A stretch of 64,000 nt of DNA, taken from assembly GCA_018238625.1 (NCBI GenBank), contig JABCSY010000005.1, forward strand, positions 16,746-80,745, given 5' to 3'. A program made the translations under genes and the position numbers. Below, in pieces: positions 4,796-38,569 of the stretch (its first letter is position 1; each line of letters begins with the position of its first letter). Origin of the DNA: Promethearchaeota archaeon. Lineage in GTDB: Archaea; Asgardarchaeota; Lokiarchaeia; Sigyniarchaeales; SOKP01. The notes below the pieces were generated by a model. The model worked only from the letters and a program-made list of their open reading frames with translations, searched no databases and had not been told where the DNA came from.

Positions 4796-5113
4796 TTTAA
4801 CTTCTCTCTCATTATTTTTTTATCTGATTTTAAGATCTATAACCTATAATATTTAATTATTATAATAAAGTAAAGGCTTAAAAATTATTACTAAAATAAT
4901 AAAAATAAGATTTTACTTAATTAAATCAAATCAACGAATTGCTATTTAAGATCTAAACTTTATTTTTTCGCTTTTTTTTTATATTTTTGATAAATTTAAA
5001 TTTCTTTAAAATATATATATATTTAAGAGTTTATTTAGACTAACTTGAGTAATCTAATACAGAATTCAAATTTACATTGATAAATATAAATATAGATAAA
5101 GAGTAGTATTTTT

Positions 5114-5528: not shown

Positions 5529-8500
5529 TTATTTTTTATCTTTAAGACCTTTTTCTTCTAATAAAGAATCTAAATCTGTTGCTGGCTTTTCTGTCTTAAT
5601 TTCTTTTTGTTTCTGTTTTTTAGACAATTTTTTACTCGCTTTTTTTGCCGGCATTTTTTTGGGTTCTTCTTTGGGTAATTCACTTACACTAACATATCTT
5701 CCTCTTCTTGGTTTTTTCTTAGAAGGTTCTTCGATAGGAGTTTCAATTTTCTCCGTAGTTCTTTTGACATATAAGTACATTACGCCCCATAATAACGCAA
5801 AAATACCGATCATAATTAGCGTAAAGAAAACGGTGATGTAATTTGCAAGAGGTATGTCGTAAATTTCAAATGTTTTTATCGTTTGAACGGTTATGTTCTC
5901 ATGTGTTAATTCGTTCGTTGCTTCTATTAATACTGTAATCGTCATCTCATTTATAGCAGGAACATCTATAGATATTAATAAGTCTGTAGATTCTCCGGGT
6001 TGGAAGTTATTTAATATTAAATAATTTATCTCAACAATGCTATGCGTTAAAGAAGGTGCGATTATAATAGATATCCTTGAACTCGAAATAGCTAGTATTG
6101 AATCGCCAATATTAGTTAATGTTATTTTCATTGTTGTTTTACCGTTTCTAGTAATCTGATTTACGTTCGATACAATTCCCAAAGATATGTTGTTAGATAC
6201 TTTGTACAAAGACACAGAGATATTTTGCGAATTCTCTAAAATATACTGTTCTCCTTGCCAAGTGAGCCTAAATAGAAGGTCATCTTCACGTAGTAGCGAT
6301 AGAGTATCAATCTCAAAGCTTGTAACTCCATTAGCACCCGAAATTTGAGATGAAACGTTTTCCCATAAACCACTATCAAAATATTGGCAAGTAACATTCT
6401 TATTTGAAATTTCTTCTCCGAATTCGGTAGTTAACACAGAACTAATGTTAAATTTTTGTCCGTAAATTGGTGTTTGAGGATTAATTATAATATCAGAGAA
6501 TTTGCTATTTACTTTCAAGGAAAATGAATCGATAAATTGATTATAACTGCTTACGAAGTTTTTGTCATATATGTTTACGACAAATGTTGTTTGATTAGGC
6601 ATGTATTGGCACACATCTCTTTCAAACGGTTTTAATATCGAAGCTCCTGTAATTTCCTCGTCGTATTTTAAAGTTATGATATAACCTTCAAATTCATTTT
6701 GAGTGCTATTTATTATCAATGAGTACTCATTACTTTCAAAAGTATCAACTTCATGACTTTCTCCTGAGTATTCAAAATAGACCGTAAATATTGTTTTAGC
6801 TCCTCCTTTTCTAACGGGCGCGTTTACTCCTTGCCAAACTCCGTCTGCTTGAAGAGTTGGTATTGTAAGACTTACGGAAAAGTCTTGCGTGTCAGCACCG
6901 TTAGGTGTTCCACTTGTTTTTAGACTTTCTACATCAGTGTACTTCTCAGCAATTATCCATTCTTCGTTAACCAGAGACACTAATTGAACTTTTAATTTTA
7001 CATCCAAATCGATAAAATCGTGCAAATTTTGAATTGTTACGCCTATTTTGATATCTTCATTGGGATTAAGAAGAGTTTCATTTTGCAAAAAGGTTTTTAC
7101 TAGTATTGGTATCTCTTCGCCGTTTATTTCATAAATAAATTGTTGATTTATGTCAGAGTTATTAACCGCGTAAAAATCTGGATAATAATTATCATCTGTT
7201 ACATTTATTGTACCAATCAACATTGAATAACTTTCATAAACTTTGTCTACAATGCCGTCAAGGATGTTTTGGTCTAGGATTGGTTCGTAAAATAAACTAT
7301 TCATATTAATGCCATAAGTGTCAATATATAATTTCAGTTTCTTACATCCAACTGCGGAACCATTCTCCCAGAAATAGCCTAAATAATAATTTCCAAGGAG
7401 AGGTGTATCTTTGGTAACATCTAAAATAGTTTGGTTATTGAAGTCATATACAAGCGTAGTACCTTTAATCATTCCTGCTCCTGAATTCATTTCTCCTCCT
7501 GGAAATATGGTGCTATTATCTGGATAAAACAGTTTAACATTTGCATTGCCACTTGTGGGTGGTATACCGTTGGGACCTTGGATATCAACGCCTACAGATA
7601 TATTATCTCCATACATAAATCCATTTGTCTCCCATAAAATTCCATTGTAATTAATGTAACTATGCATCTCATCTATGAGGTTACTACTCGTTAAATTAAG
7701 AGAGTAGATTCCGTCAATGCCTTTAACTACGGCGCTAGTAATAGCTGTAAAATCATACGATGGGTTAGCGTCAAAATTAGTCTCTCCTCCTGTGCTATTT
7801 ACCACCTCTCCGTAAATCTCATCGTAATTTGGATTAATTAAGCTTTTTGCATCCCAATCGTTGGGATATACAAACCAAAATTCAAGGAAGTTCCAATTAT
7901 CAAGATTAGCATCACTTAAATCTAAAGTGTAATTTAAATCCCATCTCGGAGTTGTATCGTACGATACCTCATAATAACTATTCGCGTTTTCTACCCAATA
8001 ACCCTTTACTGTATAAGTAACATTGAATTTAAACCCTGAAATAATGCTACTATTCCATGTGAGATCTATTTGTAAATTATTTGAAATACTTTCAATTTCG
8101 ACTGTAAAGTTATTGTTCCATTGCCCTTTTCCCCAAGTTAAGGATGAGCTTACATCATAAGGGGGCTCGCTGATAATTTGATCTTCTATTGAAATATCTT
8201 GTATTCTTAGCGTATCTTGACTATCGTCAGGATTAATAAAGTCAGAAGGCATATATCCGCGCGTTACGTTCAATTTAAAAACTGTTGCATCTAATTCTTC
8301 AGATTCGTAGCCTGGAGTCACTTGTTTTTTGGCAACATTCCAGGTTAGACCATCGTCATTAGTCGTTCTTAATTGATGATCTACAGTAGAATTTGGATCG
8401 CCAAAAGTTTGTCTGGGAAGCGTTACTAAACTAAATATTTTATCTGTATGGTTTGATTTAATTACTATGAAATAATTATAGAGTTTTAGATTTTGAGTGT

Positions 8501-33290: not shown

Positions 33291-34121
33291 CTAATTTATA
33301 TATTTTAATAGAACATCTAAATCTGCTAGTTTGTCAATAGGTTTAATAATTATATCGTCTGCTTCGGTAATTGTTAATATCTCTTTTATCTCCTTTTCTG
33401 AAACAACAGCAGATATCAAAACTATAGGAATTGCTTTATATAGCATCTTAGATTTTAGCATCTGGCACAATTTGGTTCCGTCAATATTGCTAGTTTTTAA
33501 ATCTATATCTAATAAAATGGCTTGAGGAGTAGAAGTTTTCAAAATATCAAGTCCTTCTTCGGAAGTTTCTACAGATTTAATATCTACGTCTTTTCTCTTA
33601 AAATAGGTGTCAACTGTTTTGCGTTCTAATTCGTTATCTTCAATATATAAAATATCAAAGTTTTTTATATATCTAATCAACTTAGGTTTTTCATAATGTC
33701 GTTTTATTAAATTTTCTAAATCTACCAAGGCGTTTTTTATATTTTCTATATTTTCAATTAACTTTTTTGGTTCATTTAGAAAACTACCTAACATTAGAAT
33801 TGATACTTTAAGAGGTGAAAGTTTCTGTTTTAACTCTTCGTGAAAAGTCGTGTGTAATTCAAAAGAATCAATAGCTTCCCTAATGGAACTATTAATAGAT
33901 TTTTCATCGTACTCTTTTTTTTCGATGTCTTTTTGTAACATCTGATAAACATTATCGATATAAGAATTAACGGAATTTCTTATTATTTTTGCTTGATTTT
34001 TAATGCTATTCTGTTCCATGAATAGTTTTAGTTTACTGTCGAGCGCTGAATCTACGTAAGTATACCATTTAATTTGCTTTTTTTCTTTTTCTGTTTTATT
34101 ACTTTGATTGATACTATTAAT
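33291..34121 (-). CDS. response regulator: putative RHH, HisKA-like helix and C-terminal receiver (ORF track starts at 34019; frame is open to ATT 34121)
   Basis: REC: YIEDN, ILLD, ISA, IIKP; upstream in-frame KQIKWYTYVDSALDSKLKLFMEQNSIKNQAKIIRNSVNSYID; GGATGGTG 7 nt before ATT. Confidence 0.75.
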   Translation of the reverse strand: MNSINQSNKTEKEKKQIKWYTYVDSALDSKLKLFMEQNSIKNQAKIIRNSVNSYIDNVYQMLQKDIEKKEYDEKSINSSIREAIDSFELHTTFHEELKQKLSPLKVSILMLGSFLNEPKKLIENIENIKNALVDLENLIKRHYEKPKLIRYIKNFDILYIEDNELERKTVDTYFKRKDVDIKSVETSEEGLDILKTSTPQAILLDIDLKTSNIDGTKLCQMLKSKMLYKAIPIVLISAVVSEKEIKEILTITEADDIIIKPIDKLADLDVLLKYIN

Positions 34122-34162
34122 TGATTTACACCATCCAAGATTACTATAAACAATACTTTTTT

Positions 34163-35779
34163 TTATAATGCTTCAGGAATTTGAATTATGAAATTACTTC
34201 CTTGAGTATAATCCCCTTTAATTTTATCTTCAACCCAGATTTCACCCTCGCATAAATCTAAAAGCTTTGCAACGAGAGAAAGTCCAAGCCCCATACCTTT
34301 AGATCCTATCGGTTTTTTAACATTTCTTTTAAATATAATATTCTTTTTAGTATCATTAATGCCAATACCATTATCTTTAAATTCTAATTTGATATGTGAT
34401 TTCTGATTTTCCATCACTCTTGAAATATTAATTTCAATCTCTACAGCATCATTTTTATTATAAAGTACAGAGTTTATAAGAATATTTTCAAATACATCAA
34501 GTAATAGGTCATTGCAAAGTACGTAAATTTTATTTGCCTCAGATTCGATGTTAACAATTATTTCTCGTTTTTGGAAATTTACTTTTACATATTGGGTAGC
34601 ACTTCTTATTTTCTCAAAAATCTCTATAGGTTTTAAAGGTATTTCAGATTCTTCAATGTCTGATAGTTCTCTTATATTATTTATTAACTTTTTCCCTCGT
34701 TTAATCTGTTGCTCAATTGCTTTAAAATATTCAAGCATATCATTATTTTCAATATTTTTTTTTAACAAGGTTTCACATAATTCTATGGAATTTCCAATCG
34801 TGTGAAACATGTTAGAAATATCATGCGTAAACAATCCCTTATAACAATCTGCTCTATTATATACCTTTCGATATTTTATTTCTGAACTTTCTAGTTTGAT
34901 CGTTCTTTCTTTTATTCGAATTTTTAGATCTTTCCTTAAACCGTCTAACTCAATTTCAGCTAATTTTCGCTCTGTAATGTCTTTAATAAACGTTTGAATA
35001 AGGCTCTTTTTACCTATTTTGACAAACGAGGATTCCAATGTTATCCAAAATCTTTTACCATCGCCTCTAAAGATTTCGAATTCTACAGGTTTTAAATAAC
35101 CTTCTTTAAGTAATACTACAAATCTTTCTTTAAGGACTTGCTCTATATTTTCAAATCTGGGATCTCCCTCACGGCTGAACATTTGAAGTACTTCTCTGAA
35201 AGGTTTCCCTATCAAGTCAGAAGGCTTAAATACTGACAAAAACTTATTCATTGGTTCATTGCAATCAAGGATTATTCCTTTTAAATCTACAAGCCAGATT
35301 GCGTAAGGTGTGCTATTAAATAAATTTCGATACATCTCTTCGGATTCTTTTAATTTCTGTTCTGCCTTTTTGCGCTCGGTAATGTCGCGGTCGATACCCC
35401 TATACCCTAAGAGCTCTCCGTTTCCATCGAGGATTGGCTCACCGCTCGTTTCAAGAATTATTTGCCTTCCGTCCTTATGGATGTTTATATTTTCAAGCCA
35501 TGTAAGAGATTTTTGAGATTCAACTGCTGCTTGGAAAAGTTTACGTACTCGCTCCGCCTCGTTTGAGGGCATTAAATCAAAAGGAGTTTTTCCAATGATT
35601 TCTTCTGGCTCATATCCTAATATGGCTTTAATTTTTGGACTTGAATAAGTATAGACTGAATTAGTATCCACTTCCCAAATCCAATCACTAGTAGTTTCGA
35701 CCAAAGAGCGAAATCTTTCTTCACTATCGCGCAATTTTCGCTCCGTCTGCTTGCGCTCGGTAATCTCTTCATGCAGCAT
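34163..35779 (-). CDS. PAS-PAS sensor histidine kinase
   Basis: two PAS/PAC modules ending in DITERK, H-box FTHDISN, N-box ENILIN, DNGIG, GMGLGL. Confidence 0.93.
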   Translation of the reverse strand: MLHEEITERKQTERKLRDSEERFRSLVETTSDWIWEVDTNSVYTYSSPKIKAILGYEPEEIIGKTPFDLMPSNEAERVRKLFQAAVESQKSLTWLENINIHKDGRQIILETSGEPILDGNGELLGYRGIDRDITERKKAEQKLKESEEMYRNLFNSTPYAIWLVDLKGIILDCNEPMNKFLSVFKPSDLIGKPFREVLQMFSREGDPRFENIEQVLKERFVVLLKEGYLKPVEFEIFRGDGKRFWITLESSFVKIGKKSLIQTFIKDITERKLAEIELDGLRKDLKIRIKERTIKLESSEIKYRKVYNRADCYKGLFTHDISNMFHTIGNSIELCETLLKKNIENNDMLEYFKAIEQQIKRGKKLINNIRELSDIEESEIPLKPIEIFEKIRSATQYVKVNFQKREIIVNIESEANKIYVLCNDLLLDVFENILINSVLYNKNDAVEIEINISRVMENQKSHIKLEFKDNGIGINDTKKNIIFKRNVKKPIGSKGMGLGLSLVAKLLDLCEGEIWVEDKIKGDYTQGSNFIIQIPEAL

Positions 35780-36070
35780 TAAGAACCAAATTAATTATTT
35801 AAATTCTTCTTCAAAATTCCCTAATTTAATATTTAAGGAAGTCAAAAACACCTACCCTTTAAATATTGTAATTTTCTTCTTAACTGGAAAAATAAATATA
35901 GCTATTATACTAAATTGTTAAAAGTCTATATATATATTTACTTTTTTTCTATAAATATTAACACCTTTATAAAATAAAAAGAAGTTAGGTTAATGTGTTG
36001 TTTGATGAGCTAAGAACTAACCAGCAATTCTTATTAATCGATTGATGTTAAAATAATTAGCTCTTTTGAT

Positions 36071-36191
36071 TTTACTAGTAATTCGTAAATTTTACCACTA
36101 AAATCTAAGATTTACCAGTATTTCTTTAACTTTTACTAACAATATTCGAAAGAATCTTTATATTCAATATTAAATATTAGAAATTTGATCA
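36071..36191 (+). promoter_or_regulatory. array of four TTTACYRGTA-like boxes (36071, 36091, 36111, 36132), AATCTTTATATTC (36153) and TGATCA (36186)
   Basis: 20-21 bp periodicity; same layout recurs at 37038-37137. Confidence 0.7.
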
Positions 36192-36406
36192 TTCTCAATA
36201 ATTATAATAATTCTTATTGATAATGAAGTTTGAGAGATGATTAGAGGGCGAATGAAAAACCTATTTAAAAATAGTTTTTTCCAAAAGAAATGTGTGAAAA
36301 TACTTTTAGATCTAAAATTATAAGAAGAAATTTTCAATAATAACTTGAACTTAAGTTTATATTTCCTCATTTTCTTCTAATACAAAAAAAAAGAAAAATA
36401 ATTAAA

Positions 36407-36760
36407 ATGGATAAGAATAAGGATTACTATAAAATTCTCGAAGTCGAAGAAGACGCTTCCGAGGAAGAAATTAAACTGGCTTATCGGAGATTAGCGAAAA
36501 AATATCATCCCGACCTTAATAAAACCGATCCAAAAGCTAAGGAGAAGTTTATTGAACTACTTGAAGCTTACGATACATTAAGCGATCCCCAGAGAAGAGA
36601 AGTTTATGACCAAGCCGGTTACAATCCAAGAAACATTGATTTAAGCGATATGCTTTGGAGATATGATTCTACTCGATTTAGAGAAATGCTAAGACAAATA
36701 TATACGAACCATTATAGAACTCCGTACAATAAACCTCCTCCTGAAGGAATGTATACCTAA
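36407..36760 (+). CDS. J-domain (DnaJ-like, type III) protein
   Basis: [28 protein letters not shown]. Confidence 0.92.
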
Positions 36761-36867
36761 ATGACATCTATATTGCAGCAGTTACATTGGAACATGATGC
36801 TGAGTTAGCAACCGATAATGTCAATCATTATCAACGAGTTTCACAATTAAAGATTATAAACATATAA
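36760..36867 (+). pseudogene. C-terminal fragment of a VapC/PIN toxin
   Basis: hand translation [35 protein letters not shown]; no start codon; overlaps the J-protein stop. Confidence 0.7.
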
Positions 36868-37037
36868 ACATGCTTTCAATCTATTTTTATGAATTTTATA
36901 ACAAAAAAAAAAAGTAAAGTAATTATCAAACATCACCTTTCTTCCCATTTTTAAAAATTTTATAAATCAATTTTATCGAAAATGTAGACATAAAAAATTG
37001 CCTTTTTCTGGGATATTTTCAATTAATTTGAACAATT

Positions 37038-37178
37038 TTTACTAGTAGCATTCATATTTTTACTGGTAAAAATAAGATTTTACGGTTAATTTCAGTGTAA
37101 TCTTTATATTCCAGATTCATCTAGAGATATTTGATCAATATCAATAATTACATATTAATTTTTGATCATTTTTGATCA
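37038..37178 (+). promoter_or_regulatory. three TTTACYRGTA-like boxes (37038, 37059, 37079), AATCTTTATATTC (37099) and TGATCA x3
   Basis: same spacing as 36071-36191; upstream of the beta-helix gene at 37211. Confidence 0.7.
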
Positions 37179-37210
37179 GCATTTAATTTGTAAAAAAAGG
37201 TAGAAATTAT

Positions 37211-38569
37211 ATGAATAAAGCAAAATGTGTAAAAATTAGCTTATTACTGACAGCATTATCACTATCGATATGCATTCCCATGTTTGCCATATCTGTAACC
37301 GCGAAGAAACAAGTATATACTCGCAACATTCCTGTTTACATCAATGACGCCGTTCCTGGTTGTTCTTGGGCAGAATGGAGCGTAGAACCATGGCTAAAAG
37401 GTTCTGGTACCGAAGAAGATCCCTACATGATTAAAGACTTAGTCATTGAGGTAAGTGGATTTCAATTTGCCATGATGATTCAAGACTCAGATGCGTATTT
37501 CAAAATAATGAAGTGTACTTTTAGTAATGGCGGTATAGTAGGAGAAAGATCTGCAGGATTCATTTTAATCAACACTCAAAATGGTGTCATCTTCAAGAAC
37601 AACTTTATTGGTAACGATGGAGCGGGAATCGCCGTAATTGGGTCGTTACATAACGTGATCCAAAAAAACCTCTGTAGCGAAAATGGAGTTGGGATTTACA
37701 TCGAATGGGGTATGTTTACTACTATTAAACAAAACGATTGTAAGAATAATTTTGATTCAGGAATTGTTATTGCATCAGCCCACAAAAACGTAATAGAGAA
37801 GAACGACTGCTTTGAAAACGCTAACGCTGGTATTGCATTAATAAATGTGGGCGAACCAGATCATTCCCCCAAAGACAACATCATTTACAAGAATAACCTT
37901 GAAAACAATCTACTTGGAATTTATTCATCTGACGCGGATATGAACGATGTCTTGAGAAACACGATTGCAGAAAACTTCTATGGAATCTCGTTTGGCCTTG
38001 GATCCGAAGGAAATACCGTGTACCACAATAATTTCATAGATAACGACAACCAGGCAATTGATTTTCAACCAACCGCGAACAATTGGCATCACCCCTACAT
38101 GCTCGAAGGAAATTTCTGGTCGGACGCTCCTTTTGGATACGACTTATATCCGATCGTAGAAGAAAACGGTTGGGAAGTTATGACTCCTATCGAAGAAGAG
38201 ATTTTAGATCCTTTACTACCTAATCGATTAGGAGGAGATCGCATAGTAATCGCGAGCGAGACGAGTTATATCCGTTATGGGGTCTTGCAATTGTTTTCAG
38301 AAAGAGTCGAAGGAGAAGCGTACCCTCCATACACGGTTCGGATCAATGGAGAAGAAGTTCTAGATTCTGTATGGCTCTTCAAAGAAGAAACTGATTATGG
38401 AGAACCAGGTTTGATGCAATTATACTACATAAAAATACCTCCATATTATCTAACTGAGGTAATGGGACTTACTCTTGGATATCACGAATATTTAGTGGAA
38501 ATAAGTTGGTATAATAGCGGGGAACTGCAAGTAGCAAGCTTTACTACAGGTTTCACCTTAATTGAATAA
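37211..38569 (+). CDS. secreted NosD/CASH beta-helix protein (no C-terminal anchor)
   Basis: signal peptide, GSGTEEDPYMI, N..GI rungs, GNFWSD. Confidence 0.85.
   Translation: MNKAKCVKISLLLTALSLSICIPMFAISVTAKKQVYTRNIPVYINDAVPGCSWAEWSVEPWLKGSGTEEDPYMIKDLVIEVSGFQFAMMIQDSDAYFKIMKCTFSNGGIVGERSAGFILINTQNGVIFKNNFIGNDGAGIAVIGSLHNVIQKNLCSENGVGIYIEWGMFTTIKQNDCKNNFDSGIVIASAHKNVIEKNDCFENANAGIALINVGEPDHSPKDNIIYKNNLENNLLGIYSSDADMNDVLRNTIAENFYGISFGLGSEGNTVYHNNFIDNDNQAIDFQPTANNWHHPYMLEGNFWSDAPFGYDLYPIVEENGWEVMTPIEEEILDPLLPNRLGGDRIVIASETSYIRYGVLQLFSERVEGEAYPPYTVRINGEEVLDSVWLFKEETDYGEPGLMQLYYIKIPPYYLTEVMGLTLGYHEYLVEISWYNSGELQVASFTTGFTLIE

Follow-up and report, generated by a model that had tools for sequence, protein, structure and literature searches.

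We have analysed a 64,000-nucleotide (nt) stretch of genomic DNA from a Promethearchaeota archaeon (contig JABCSY010000005.1), referred to here as the window, and describe two promoters in it, P1 (at 36071) and P2 (at 37038), each of which is preceded by an array of short palindromic boxes repeated about every two helical turns; all coordinates are positions of the whole window. The arrays lie beside the genes of a PAS histidine kinase and of a response regulator in which a predicted ribbon-helix-helix (RHH) part and a DHp hairpin precede a receiver domain (REC). Judged from its copies, the array is one module of a multi-copy promoter cassette and is not peculiar to the P1/P2 locus. Our best explanation of the whole, to which we give a probability of roughly 0.5, is that the cassette arrays are read by the neighbouring RHH-DHp-REC regulator. 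The observations that bear on this explanation are the anatomy of the promoters, the recurrence of the cassette near orthologous regulator genes, the predicted dimer formed by the regulator, and the conservation of the boxes.

Anatomy of P1 and P2

The elements of the two promoters are as follows.

36071..36082, no strand: P1 box 1, TTTACTAGTAAT, kept in nine orthologous P1 regions; centre at about -110 from TGATCA
36091..36102, no strand: P1 box 2, TTTACCACTAAA, from the sequence, the genome scan, the nine orthologous regions and the P1/P2 alignment
36111..36122, no strand: P1 box 3, TTTACCAGTATT, with a strain variant (36116 C>T) at the degenerate central position
36132..36143, no strand: P1 box 4, TTTACTAACAAT, the weakest of the four; centre at about -49
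36153..36165, + strand: P1 13-mer AATCTTTATATTC, TFB-recognition element (BRE) and TATA element, read from the sequence
36186..36236, + strand: P1 predicted start region, TGATCA, and leader; transcription start predicted
36252..36323, + strand: P1 remnant open reading frame (ORF) of 23 codons with a GAGGG Shine-Dalgarno-like site in front, from the sequence
37038..37049, no strand: P2 box 1, TTTACTAGTAGC, from the sequence, the genome scan and the P1/P2 alignment
37059..37070, no strand: P2 box 2, TTTACTGGTAAA, with perfect half-sites, from the sequence and the genome scan
37079..37090, no strand: P2 box 3, TTTACGGTTAAT, from the sequence, the genome scan and the cassette alignment; centre at about -48
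37099..37111, + strand: P2 BRE/TATA 13-mer, identical to that of P1, from the sequence
37132..37137, + strand: P2 TGATCA, predicted start region; transcription start predicted
37211..38569, + strand: secreted NosD/right-handed beta-helix protein of 452 amino acids (aa), the P2 target, from the ORF and domain annotation

An earlier, sequence-only reading of this DNA had given positions and steps for the boxes, the 13-mer and the TGATCA element, and these were exact on direct reading. The boxes of P1 follow one another at steps of 20/20/21 bp, with the 13-mer at +21 and TGATCA at +33 (36186), and those of P2 at steps of 21/20 bp, with the 13-mer at +20 and TGATCA again at +33 (37132); the gap between the proximal box and the 13-mer is 8-9 bp. 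In both promoters three or more sites recur regularly, about every two helical turns, to the 5' side of the core promoter; at 20-21 bp apart, the boxes share one side of the helix. For a transcription start located some 25 bp beyond TATA, within TGATCA or close to it, the centres of the P1 boxes would be located at about -49, -70, -90 and -110.

The core of the box had been described as the palindrome TACYRGTA. We observed that the boxes do form a dyad motif, but that this core is matched by 4 of the 7 boxes, 2 of the 7 being self-complementary (TACTAGTA); TTTAC is the sole part that is invariant in all seven, and the 12-bp palindrome TTTACnnGTAAA, which is the best genome-wide box consensus, describes the boxes better. 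As also claimed, the boxes stand just upstream of an archaeal-type TATA element, and the element TTTATATT is present and conserved in the cassettes. The 13-mer occurs seven times in the genome, and just the copies of P1 and P2 come after box arrays.

P1 is an orphan promoter in this genome, with no gene of its own and merely the 23-codon remnant behind it, which from its sequence is the decayed 5' end of a gene formerly driven by P1. The orthologous P1 promoters in loci L022 and L043 lead into intact secreted beta-helix genes, and the DnaJ-domain gene at 36407 has a separate TTTATATT 43 bp upstream. Inverted arms at 36189-36201 and 36224-36236 of the P1 leader could form a hairpin in the 5' untranslated region; in many cassettes an 11-bp leader hairpin (UCAUUAUCAAU / AUUGAUAAUGA) is possible directly after the predicted start (window 36189-36236; L003, L007, L012, L015, L053, L065), with G-U-compatible changes in two copies, and the shorter leaders of C4, L016 and L048 are without its 3' arm.

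Between the two promoters, the segment 36781-36867 (+ strand) encodes a remnant C-terminus of a PIN-domain protein (VTLEHDAELATDNVNHYQRVSQLKIINI, then a stop) that matches the end of an intact 129-aa gene in genome G016 (L012 18004-18393). In G016 the two promoters are separated by 5.4 kb, and by comparison the P1-P2 interval here has been rearranged. A search of 35700-37400 with Rfam returned just a sub-threshold SNORD78 match (22.1 bits vs a gathering score of 38), which we dismissed, and a sigma-70/terminator scan, which is not relevant to an archaeon, gave fewer promoter-like matches than were found in shuffles.

Frequency of phased boxes in the genome

We searched the genome (G000; 4.29 Mb, 32% G+C), in which TTTAC occurs 17,152 times on both strands, for chains of this pentamer. 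At steps of 19-22 bp there were two chains of at least four (P1 and contig C129), compared with none in each of 7 other step ranges and none for each of 9 control pentamers. Chains of at least three at the same steps numbered four (P1, P2, C129 and one coding-looking site on C32), vs 0-2 at other steps and 0-5 for the control pentamers. From these counts a three-box TTTAC chain alone is within chance, and a four-box chain is beyond it. Pairs of 12-mers with at most one mismatch to the palindrome were found four times at a spacing of 20 and six times over the 69 other spacings between 1 and 70; the four include one assembly duplicate (C84/C174). When any pentamer was allowed, steps of 20-21 bp gave 22 chains of at least four; 21 of them belong to true tandem repeats, located on four contigs, and P1 is the only one with divergent spacers. 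Single perfect palindromes at C58, C198, C155, C82, C164, C190 and C44 were mostly coding or not beside a regulator gene and provided no lead.

The promoter cassette and its copies

The module of which P1 and P2 are copies measures about 220 bp. Its order is two to four boxes, 8-9 bp, AA(T/C)CTTTATATTC, about 20 nt, TTTGATC..TATCAAT and a leader, often with the 11-bp hairpin; then follow a GAAGG/GAGGG site and the ATG of a secreted beta-helix protein, which begins with a signal peptide. With a cassette profile we found four copies in the genome (P1, P2, C4:12240 and C172:6911); many copies are present in two sister genera of Promethearchaeota. The sequence-only reading had named, as an outcome that would count against it, that the arrays occur nowhere else; they were found elsewhere in this genome and in the two genera.

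Boxes at equal phase also stand before promoters that are otherwise dissimilar. These are C40:14759, with four boxes and the gene of an SBP_bac_5 protein; C129:2792, with four boxes; and C84:1460 (duplicated on C174), with two perfect boxes against a TATA-like element and the genes of a membrane protein and a 2538-aa protein.

Several of these copies have features of their own. On C129 (2792-3660; L072) the four-box array is located between the gene of a 181-aa secreted protein (- strand) and that of a 97-aa RHH-like protein, which is followed by a PIN-domain gene in a VapBC-like pair. The C4 cassette (C4:12288-13418; L066, L080) precedes the decayed remains of a signal-peptide start (ATGAAAATGTGA), behind which lies the gene of a 304-aa protein that has no Pfam family, and homologues of this protein in L030 and L041 are likewise found behind a cassette. 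The segments C84:1-2991 and C174:7816-7875 are one region, with the two perfect boxes, assembled on two contigs; the duplication is probably assembly redundancy (the stated contamination is 7.6%). In L015 (G016:C60), at about 4880-4960 and 6552-6630, and in L049, two boxes have outward-pointing TATA elements on both sides, an arrangement that looks like a bidirectional promoter with one operator pair in common.

The regulator and its kinase

The two regulatory genes are read from the opposite strand.

33291..34112, - strand: RHH-DHp-REC response regulator; annotated ATG at 34019, RHH strand and helix A at 34082-34020
34163..35779, - strand: PAS-PAS-HisKA-HATPase histidine kinase, upstream in the operon of the regulator, from the ORF and domain annotation

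Domain annotation agrees with what had been said of the PAS kinase and of the NosD/beta-helix protein. An extension of the regulator beyond its annotated start had also been proposed, and it is real. The annotated ORF (33291-34019) contains the receiver domain (PF00072, E = 1e-14), with D192 and K247 invariant in 25 homologues. Ahead of the annotated ATG the frame contains no stop, and its translation, KKQIKWYTYVDSALDSKLKLF, comprises the strand and first helix of an RHH; the extension, ...EKEKKQIKWYTYVDSALDSKLKLF, matches the N-termini of orthologues that have a normal ATG (274-275 aa), and the strand KKxIKWYTYVDS is invariant in the 25 aligned homologues.

The AlphaFold2 model of the monomer (pLDDT 66) has the order coil, helix, helix, helical hairpin, REC. 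IKWYTYVDS, which is coil in the monomer, is followed by helices at residues 12-24 and 30-50, as expected for the strand-helix-helix of an RHH, and the hairpin consists of helices at 80-101 and 105-130. A homodimer of residues 1-135 was predicted with a score of 0.46, compared with 0.00 for the best control; 20 of 30 solved homo-pairs attained this mark, as did 1 of 23 solved single chains. Contact agreement between the runs is 92% or more, with a partner pLDDT of 73 or higher. In the predicted dimer the strands pair antiparallel in the manner of RHH dimers, with residue 9 in contact with residues 5 and 6 of the other copy, and inter-chain contacts extend over residues 81-130 in the manner of a DHp four-helix bundle. 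The score may reflect likeness to solved RHH and DHp dimers. Language-model leads for the RHH part were weak (RHH_1/CopG, NikA-like, Arc and HicB clusters; scores 0.79-0.81).

There are six RHH-DHp-REC genes in this genome. At the position of the H-box histidine the window protein reads FHEELKQKLSPL, and the histidine is not conserved there in the 25 homologues, among which Y, F, N or Q occur; more distant paralogues in the genome retain SHALKEPL. The protein had been presented as part of a candidate for an undescribed system. Its architecture is, in fact, already listed, as RHH-HisKA-REC, for the Loki-type archaeon GC14_75, with the domain order of the 33291-34112 protein (Galperin et al. 2018, PMC5847659), and the protein is therefore not undescribed; the archaeon of the window belongs to the same Loki-type Asgard lineage. 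The census entry is limited to the architecture and names neither DNA targets nor a regulon or partner kinase, and the subfamily of the window protein differs from the architecture as listed in its unconserved H-box histidine (H/Y/F/N/Q) and in RHH and HisKA parts that Pfam does not detect.

A tiny out-of-frame upstream ORF (ATG GTG .. TAA) is located just before the lost start of the regulator that is described below. We also considered a kinase-RHH frameshift fusion as the explanation for the missing start and rejected it, as the frame of the RHH part is shifted by -1 from that of the kinase here but by +1 in L022. A poly-A run at 34157, immediately behind the stop codon of the kinase gene, lacks one base in contigs of three of the four metagenome runs compared.

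Linkage of the arrays to the regulator

Proximity was the sole basis on which the arrays had been linked to the regulator. We examined 27 regulator loci from named metagenome-assembled genomes (281 kb in total) and observed that the cassette profile matches 10 of them and that box chains add two, so that 12 of the 27 have a cassette or array within 7 kb of the gene; the genome-wide cassette density, about 1 per Mb, would predict about 0.3 among the 27. This conserved linkage strengthens the putative connection, to which there are counter-examples. The gene orders vary. P1 is divergent from the PAS-kinase/REC1 genes, and REC2 is convergent with a beta-helix gene and its cassette; elsewhere HK2-REC2 is divergent from a GTPase-cassette-beta-helix order, or a wHTH-TPR gene lies in between. 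A P2-type beta-helix orthologue was found in 5 of 41 other genomes of the genus, each time beside an RHH-REC gene, and in all five the regulator and this orthologue share a contig.

The taxonomic range of the pattern and that of the regulator are similar. A strict two-box pattern was found in 16 of the 41 other genus genomes; the reversed control occurred in 4 of these 41. Among genomes drawn from across the order, the pattern was present in 12/35 and 11/35 genomes of the two regulator-carrying genera (controls, 4/35 and 2/35), in 2/31 of other genera of the family (6/31) and in 1/19 of other families (4/19). Regulator orthologues (REC1/REC2 type, at least 55% identity) occur in 13/35 and 21/35 genomes of the two pattern-enriched genera only; outside them there is one relative, of 44-47% identity, in a third genus, and none in the 19 genomes of other families. 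Within the genus, the strict pattern is present in 10 of 16 genomes with the regulator vs 6 of 25 without it, and 4 of those 6 have only the C84-type pair.

A number of observations weigh against the regulator as the protein that reads the boxes. Since related genomes are not independent, the co-occurrence counts make its support look stronger than it is. In the protein itself, Pfam recognised REC alone, with no RHH match up to E = 5 and no HisKA match. The position of the ancestral start codon, 34112-34110, reads ATC here and ATC, ATT, AGC or AAC in five relatives, and in this subclade no ATG, GTG or TTG is found before the internal Met (window 34019-34175, - strand; loci L020-L028). The 20 codons after the lost ATG are, on the other side, conserved with mostly synonymous changes (7 synonymous, 4 non-synonymous; G000 vs L022), and since the RHH codons are thus under purifying selection the RHH part seems to be made. 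Genome G086, which is 100% complete, keeps a P1-type array before an SBP-like gene with only 30-34% regulator paralogues, and the C84-type box pair occurs in G042, G020, G050, G008 and G051 with just distant paralogues. No REC1/2 orthologue was found in G010, G051 and G001 (86, 84 and 71% complete), which have good-box cassettes, or in G013 and G020 (98 and 92% complete), whose cassettes have weaker boxes; in G013 the expected position of the regulator would fall beyond a contig end. Conversely, G108, of another genus, has the KWYTYV strand and no 20-bp array was seen near its genes. The promoter of HK2-REC2, a paralogous operon, is without TTTAC boxes in 11 loci and in G016, and has a different conserved motif, GTTCGAACTTCG. 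Around the five other RHH-DHp-REC paralogues of the genome, a search out to 5 kb revealed no phased pentamer arrays. Finally, in a comparison of 28 cassettes the spacers of the P2 type are moderately conserved, and simple copying therefore contributes as well.

In G108 a secreted-protein gene is preceded by what may be two boxes, 42 bp apart. The motif GTTCGAACTTCG..AACTATAAA, which is found upstream of the short kinase (HK2)-REC2 operon at L012 10480-10600 and in the REC2-type loci L030-L039, is a candidate for a different operator.

It is quite possible, at rather less than even odds, that the boxes are real phased operators of a different factor common to the two genera, and that the kinase/RHH-REC pair is syntenic with one target or is itself a target. 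Such a factor would account for the arrays that persist beside only distant regulator paralogues (G086 and, for the C84-type pair, the five genomes named above), for the boxless HK2-REC2 promoter, and for G108, where the DNA-reading strand of the regulator is present with no 20-bp arrays nearby; moreover, one ancestral locus could underlie much of the linkage. Yet no other factor gene is consistently linked to the arrays, the linkage to RHH-REC genes outlasts several rearrangements, and enrichment of the array pattern is confined to the two regulator-carrying genera. A search of G000, G086, G042 and G020 for a stand-alone RHH protein with the same strand returned none, the only matches being the RHH parts of the paralogues (E 0.002-0.9). 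The wHTH-TPR neighbour was also considered as the factor and was rejected: it belongs to a large paralogous family (40 of 42 genomes), and this genome, which has arrays nonetheless, yielded no specific orthologue of it (at least 72% identity); the best match here to the G016 protein has 55% identity over the first half. In relatives (L012 7351-10435; L007 842-1390), genes of a small Ras/Rab-like GTPase and of an 824-aa double-wHTH-TPR protein lie between the cassette/beta-helix gene and HK2-REC2, a segment that is lacking in this genome. On balance, we regard it as an even bet that the factor reading the boxes belongs to the RHH-DHp-REC regulator family.

Conservation of boxes and spacers

In a box-by-box comparison of P1 with P2, the boxes are identical at 24 of 36 positions and the 13-mer at 13 of 13, whereas the spacers agree at 7 of 24, which is at chance level. 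Between TATA and TGATCA 11 of 20 positions are identical, and in the first 30 nt after TGATCA 20 of 30. The two promoters are thus homologous, with boxes and phase kept, as had been claimed; the companion claim, that the spacers differ, holds for P1 and P2, although within the P2-type cassette family the spacers too are fairly conserved. Comparison of nine orthologous P1 regions shows drift in spacers 2 and 3, with retention of box 1, box 2 and the TTTAC cores; spacer 1 is also conserved. Information in the 28 cassettes is highest at TAC, GGT and TATA. Variants of the P1 array in contigs of four metagenome runs, which are small in number, fall at 36116 (the central "n" position) and at 36127 and 36143 (spacers), and none of the three is in a core position.

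It is very probable that the boxes are functional transcription-factor sites. In a protein-free alternative, which we consider improbable, phased T/A tracts, one every two turns, would stimulate the promoter structurally by curving the DNA ahead of TATA. The T- and A-runs that flank the boxes (TTTTAC, GTAAAA), the helical phase of every copy and the A-rich, partly conserved spacers of the P2 type would fit such bending; but the information is highest at the C and G of TAC and GGT and not at the A/T tracts, the motif has the dyad symmetry expected of a site for a dimeric protein, and in the C84-type promoter the perfect palindromes stand directly at the TATA-like element, at another distance. 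Less probable still is that the arrays are inert relics of promoter duplication, alike through the shared ancestry of copied cassettes, for although the cassette was copied with its gene family (leader and first codons are in common), P2-type spacers are fairly conserved, and P1 and the C4 copy now precede decayed ORFs, the boxes are kept where the spacers are at chance level (likewise among the nine P1 orthologues), equal boxes and phase occur in otherwise dissimilar promoters, and the controls are without four-box chains.

Proposed mode of action

We propose that the two to four palindromes TTTACnnGTAAA of each promoter, upstream of the BRE/TATA sequence AATCTTTATATTC, would be filled cooperatively by a dimeric transcription factor, which from its upstream position would aid recruitment of TBP and TFB. 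We lean towards activation, and away from repression, as the role of the factor at cassette promoters; repression might occur where a box abuts TATA, as in the C84 type. The targets would be secreted and membrane proteins, namely the beta-helix surface proteins, the SBP_bac_5 protein and the giant membrane protein.

With the RHH-DHp-REC regulator as the factor, the PAS kinase would control it and act as the switch. One RHH dimer would occupy each palindrome, held together by the DHp four-helix bundle, and the phosphorylated receivers of adjacent dimers, two turns apart, would touch and provide the cooperativity. More tentatively, at odds well short of even, the arrays may represent the first operator code and regulon of an Asgard-specific RHH-DHp-REC class, whose kinase-phosphorylated dimers would activate BRE/TATA promoters of secreted beta-helix and surface proteins.

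Comparison with known systems

To our knowledge, hardly anything is known of gene-specific transcription control in Asgard archaea. The locus described here offers a defined 12-bp box, a phase rule, few target promoters and a named candidate protein, and a complete path from signal to promoter would thereby become approachable by experiment; should the candidate fail, the arrays remain clean bait for the real factor. A literature search found no DNA target for the RHH-HisKA-REC architecture and no regulator-binding motif in Asgard promoters.

At ompF and ompC of Escherichia coli, OmpR binds upstream of the core promoter to three or four adjacent sites (F1-F3/C1-C3) that repeat about every 20 bp; it fills them cooperatively and in dependence on its phosphorylation, and envelope proteins are controlled in this way. 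The logic proposed for P1 and P2 is similar. However, OmpR reads direct repeats through a winged helix and contacts bacterial RNA polymerase, whereas the boxes here are dyads, the candidate reader is an RHH protein, the core promoter is an archaeal BRE/TATA, and binding is predicted.

RHH dimers are known from the met-boxes of MetJ and the heptads of the omega repressor to read repeated or palindromic units of 7-8 bp in cooperative arrays. Those units abut one another (a period of 7-8 bp), overlap the promoter and repress, in contrast to the window arrays, in which the units are 20-21 bp apart and upstream of TATA. Among archaeal proteins of the Lrp family, Ss-LrpB and Ptr2 bind cooperatively to several regularly spaced palindromic boxes upstream of the core promoter, and Ptr2 activates by recruiting TBP. 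Their boxes, of 13-15 bp with AT-rich centres, are more widely spaced than those of the window and are read by a helix-turn-helix. An Lrp/AsnC gene is located 5.6 kb away in the window; nothing ties it to the boxes.

DNA-binding response regulators are described as rare in archaea (PMC5847659). Archaeal RHH transcription factors are represented by aCcr1 and CdrS, which, as described in PMC9976878, resemble the present case in an approximately 9-bp palindromic box with TAC that is present in one or two copies per promoter. The aCcr1 protein is presented there as a small stand-alone RHH protein without a receiver domain, whose boxes lie between TATA and the start codon, mediate repression and do not form phased arrays (PMC9976878); at P1 and P2, by contrast, the boxes form phased arrays upstream of TATA, and the candidate reader carries a receiver domain.

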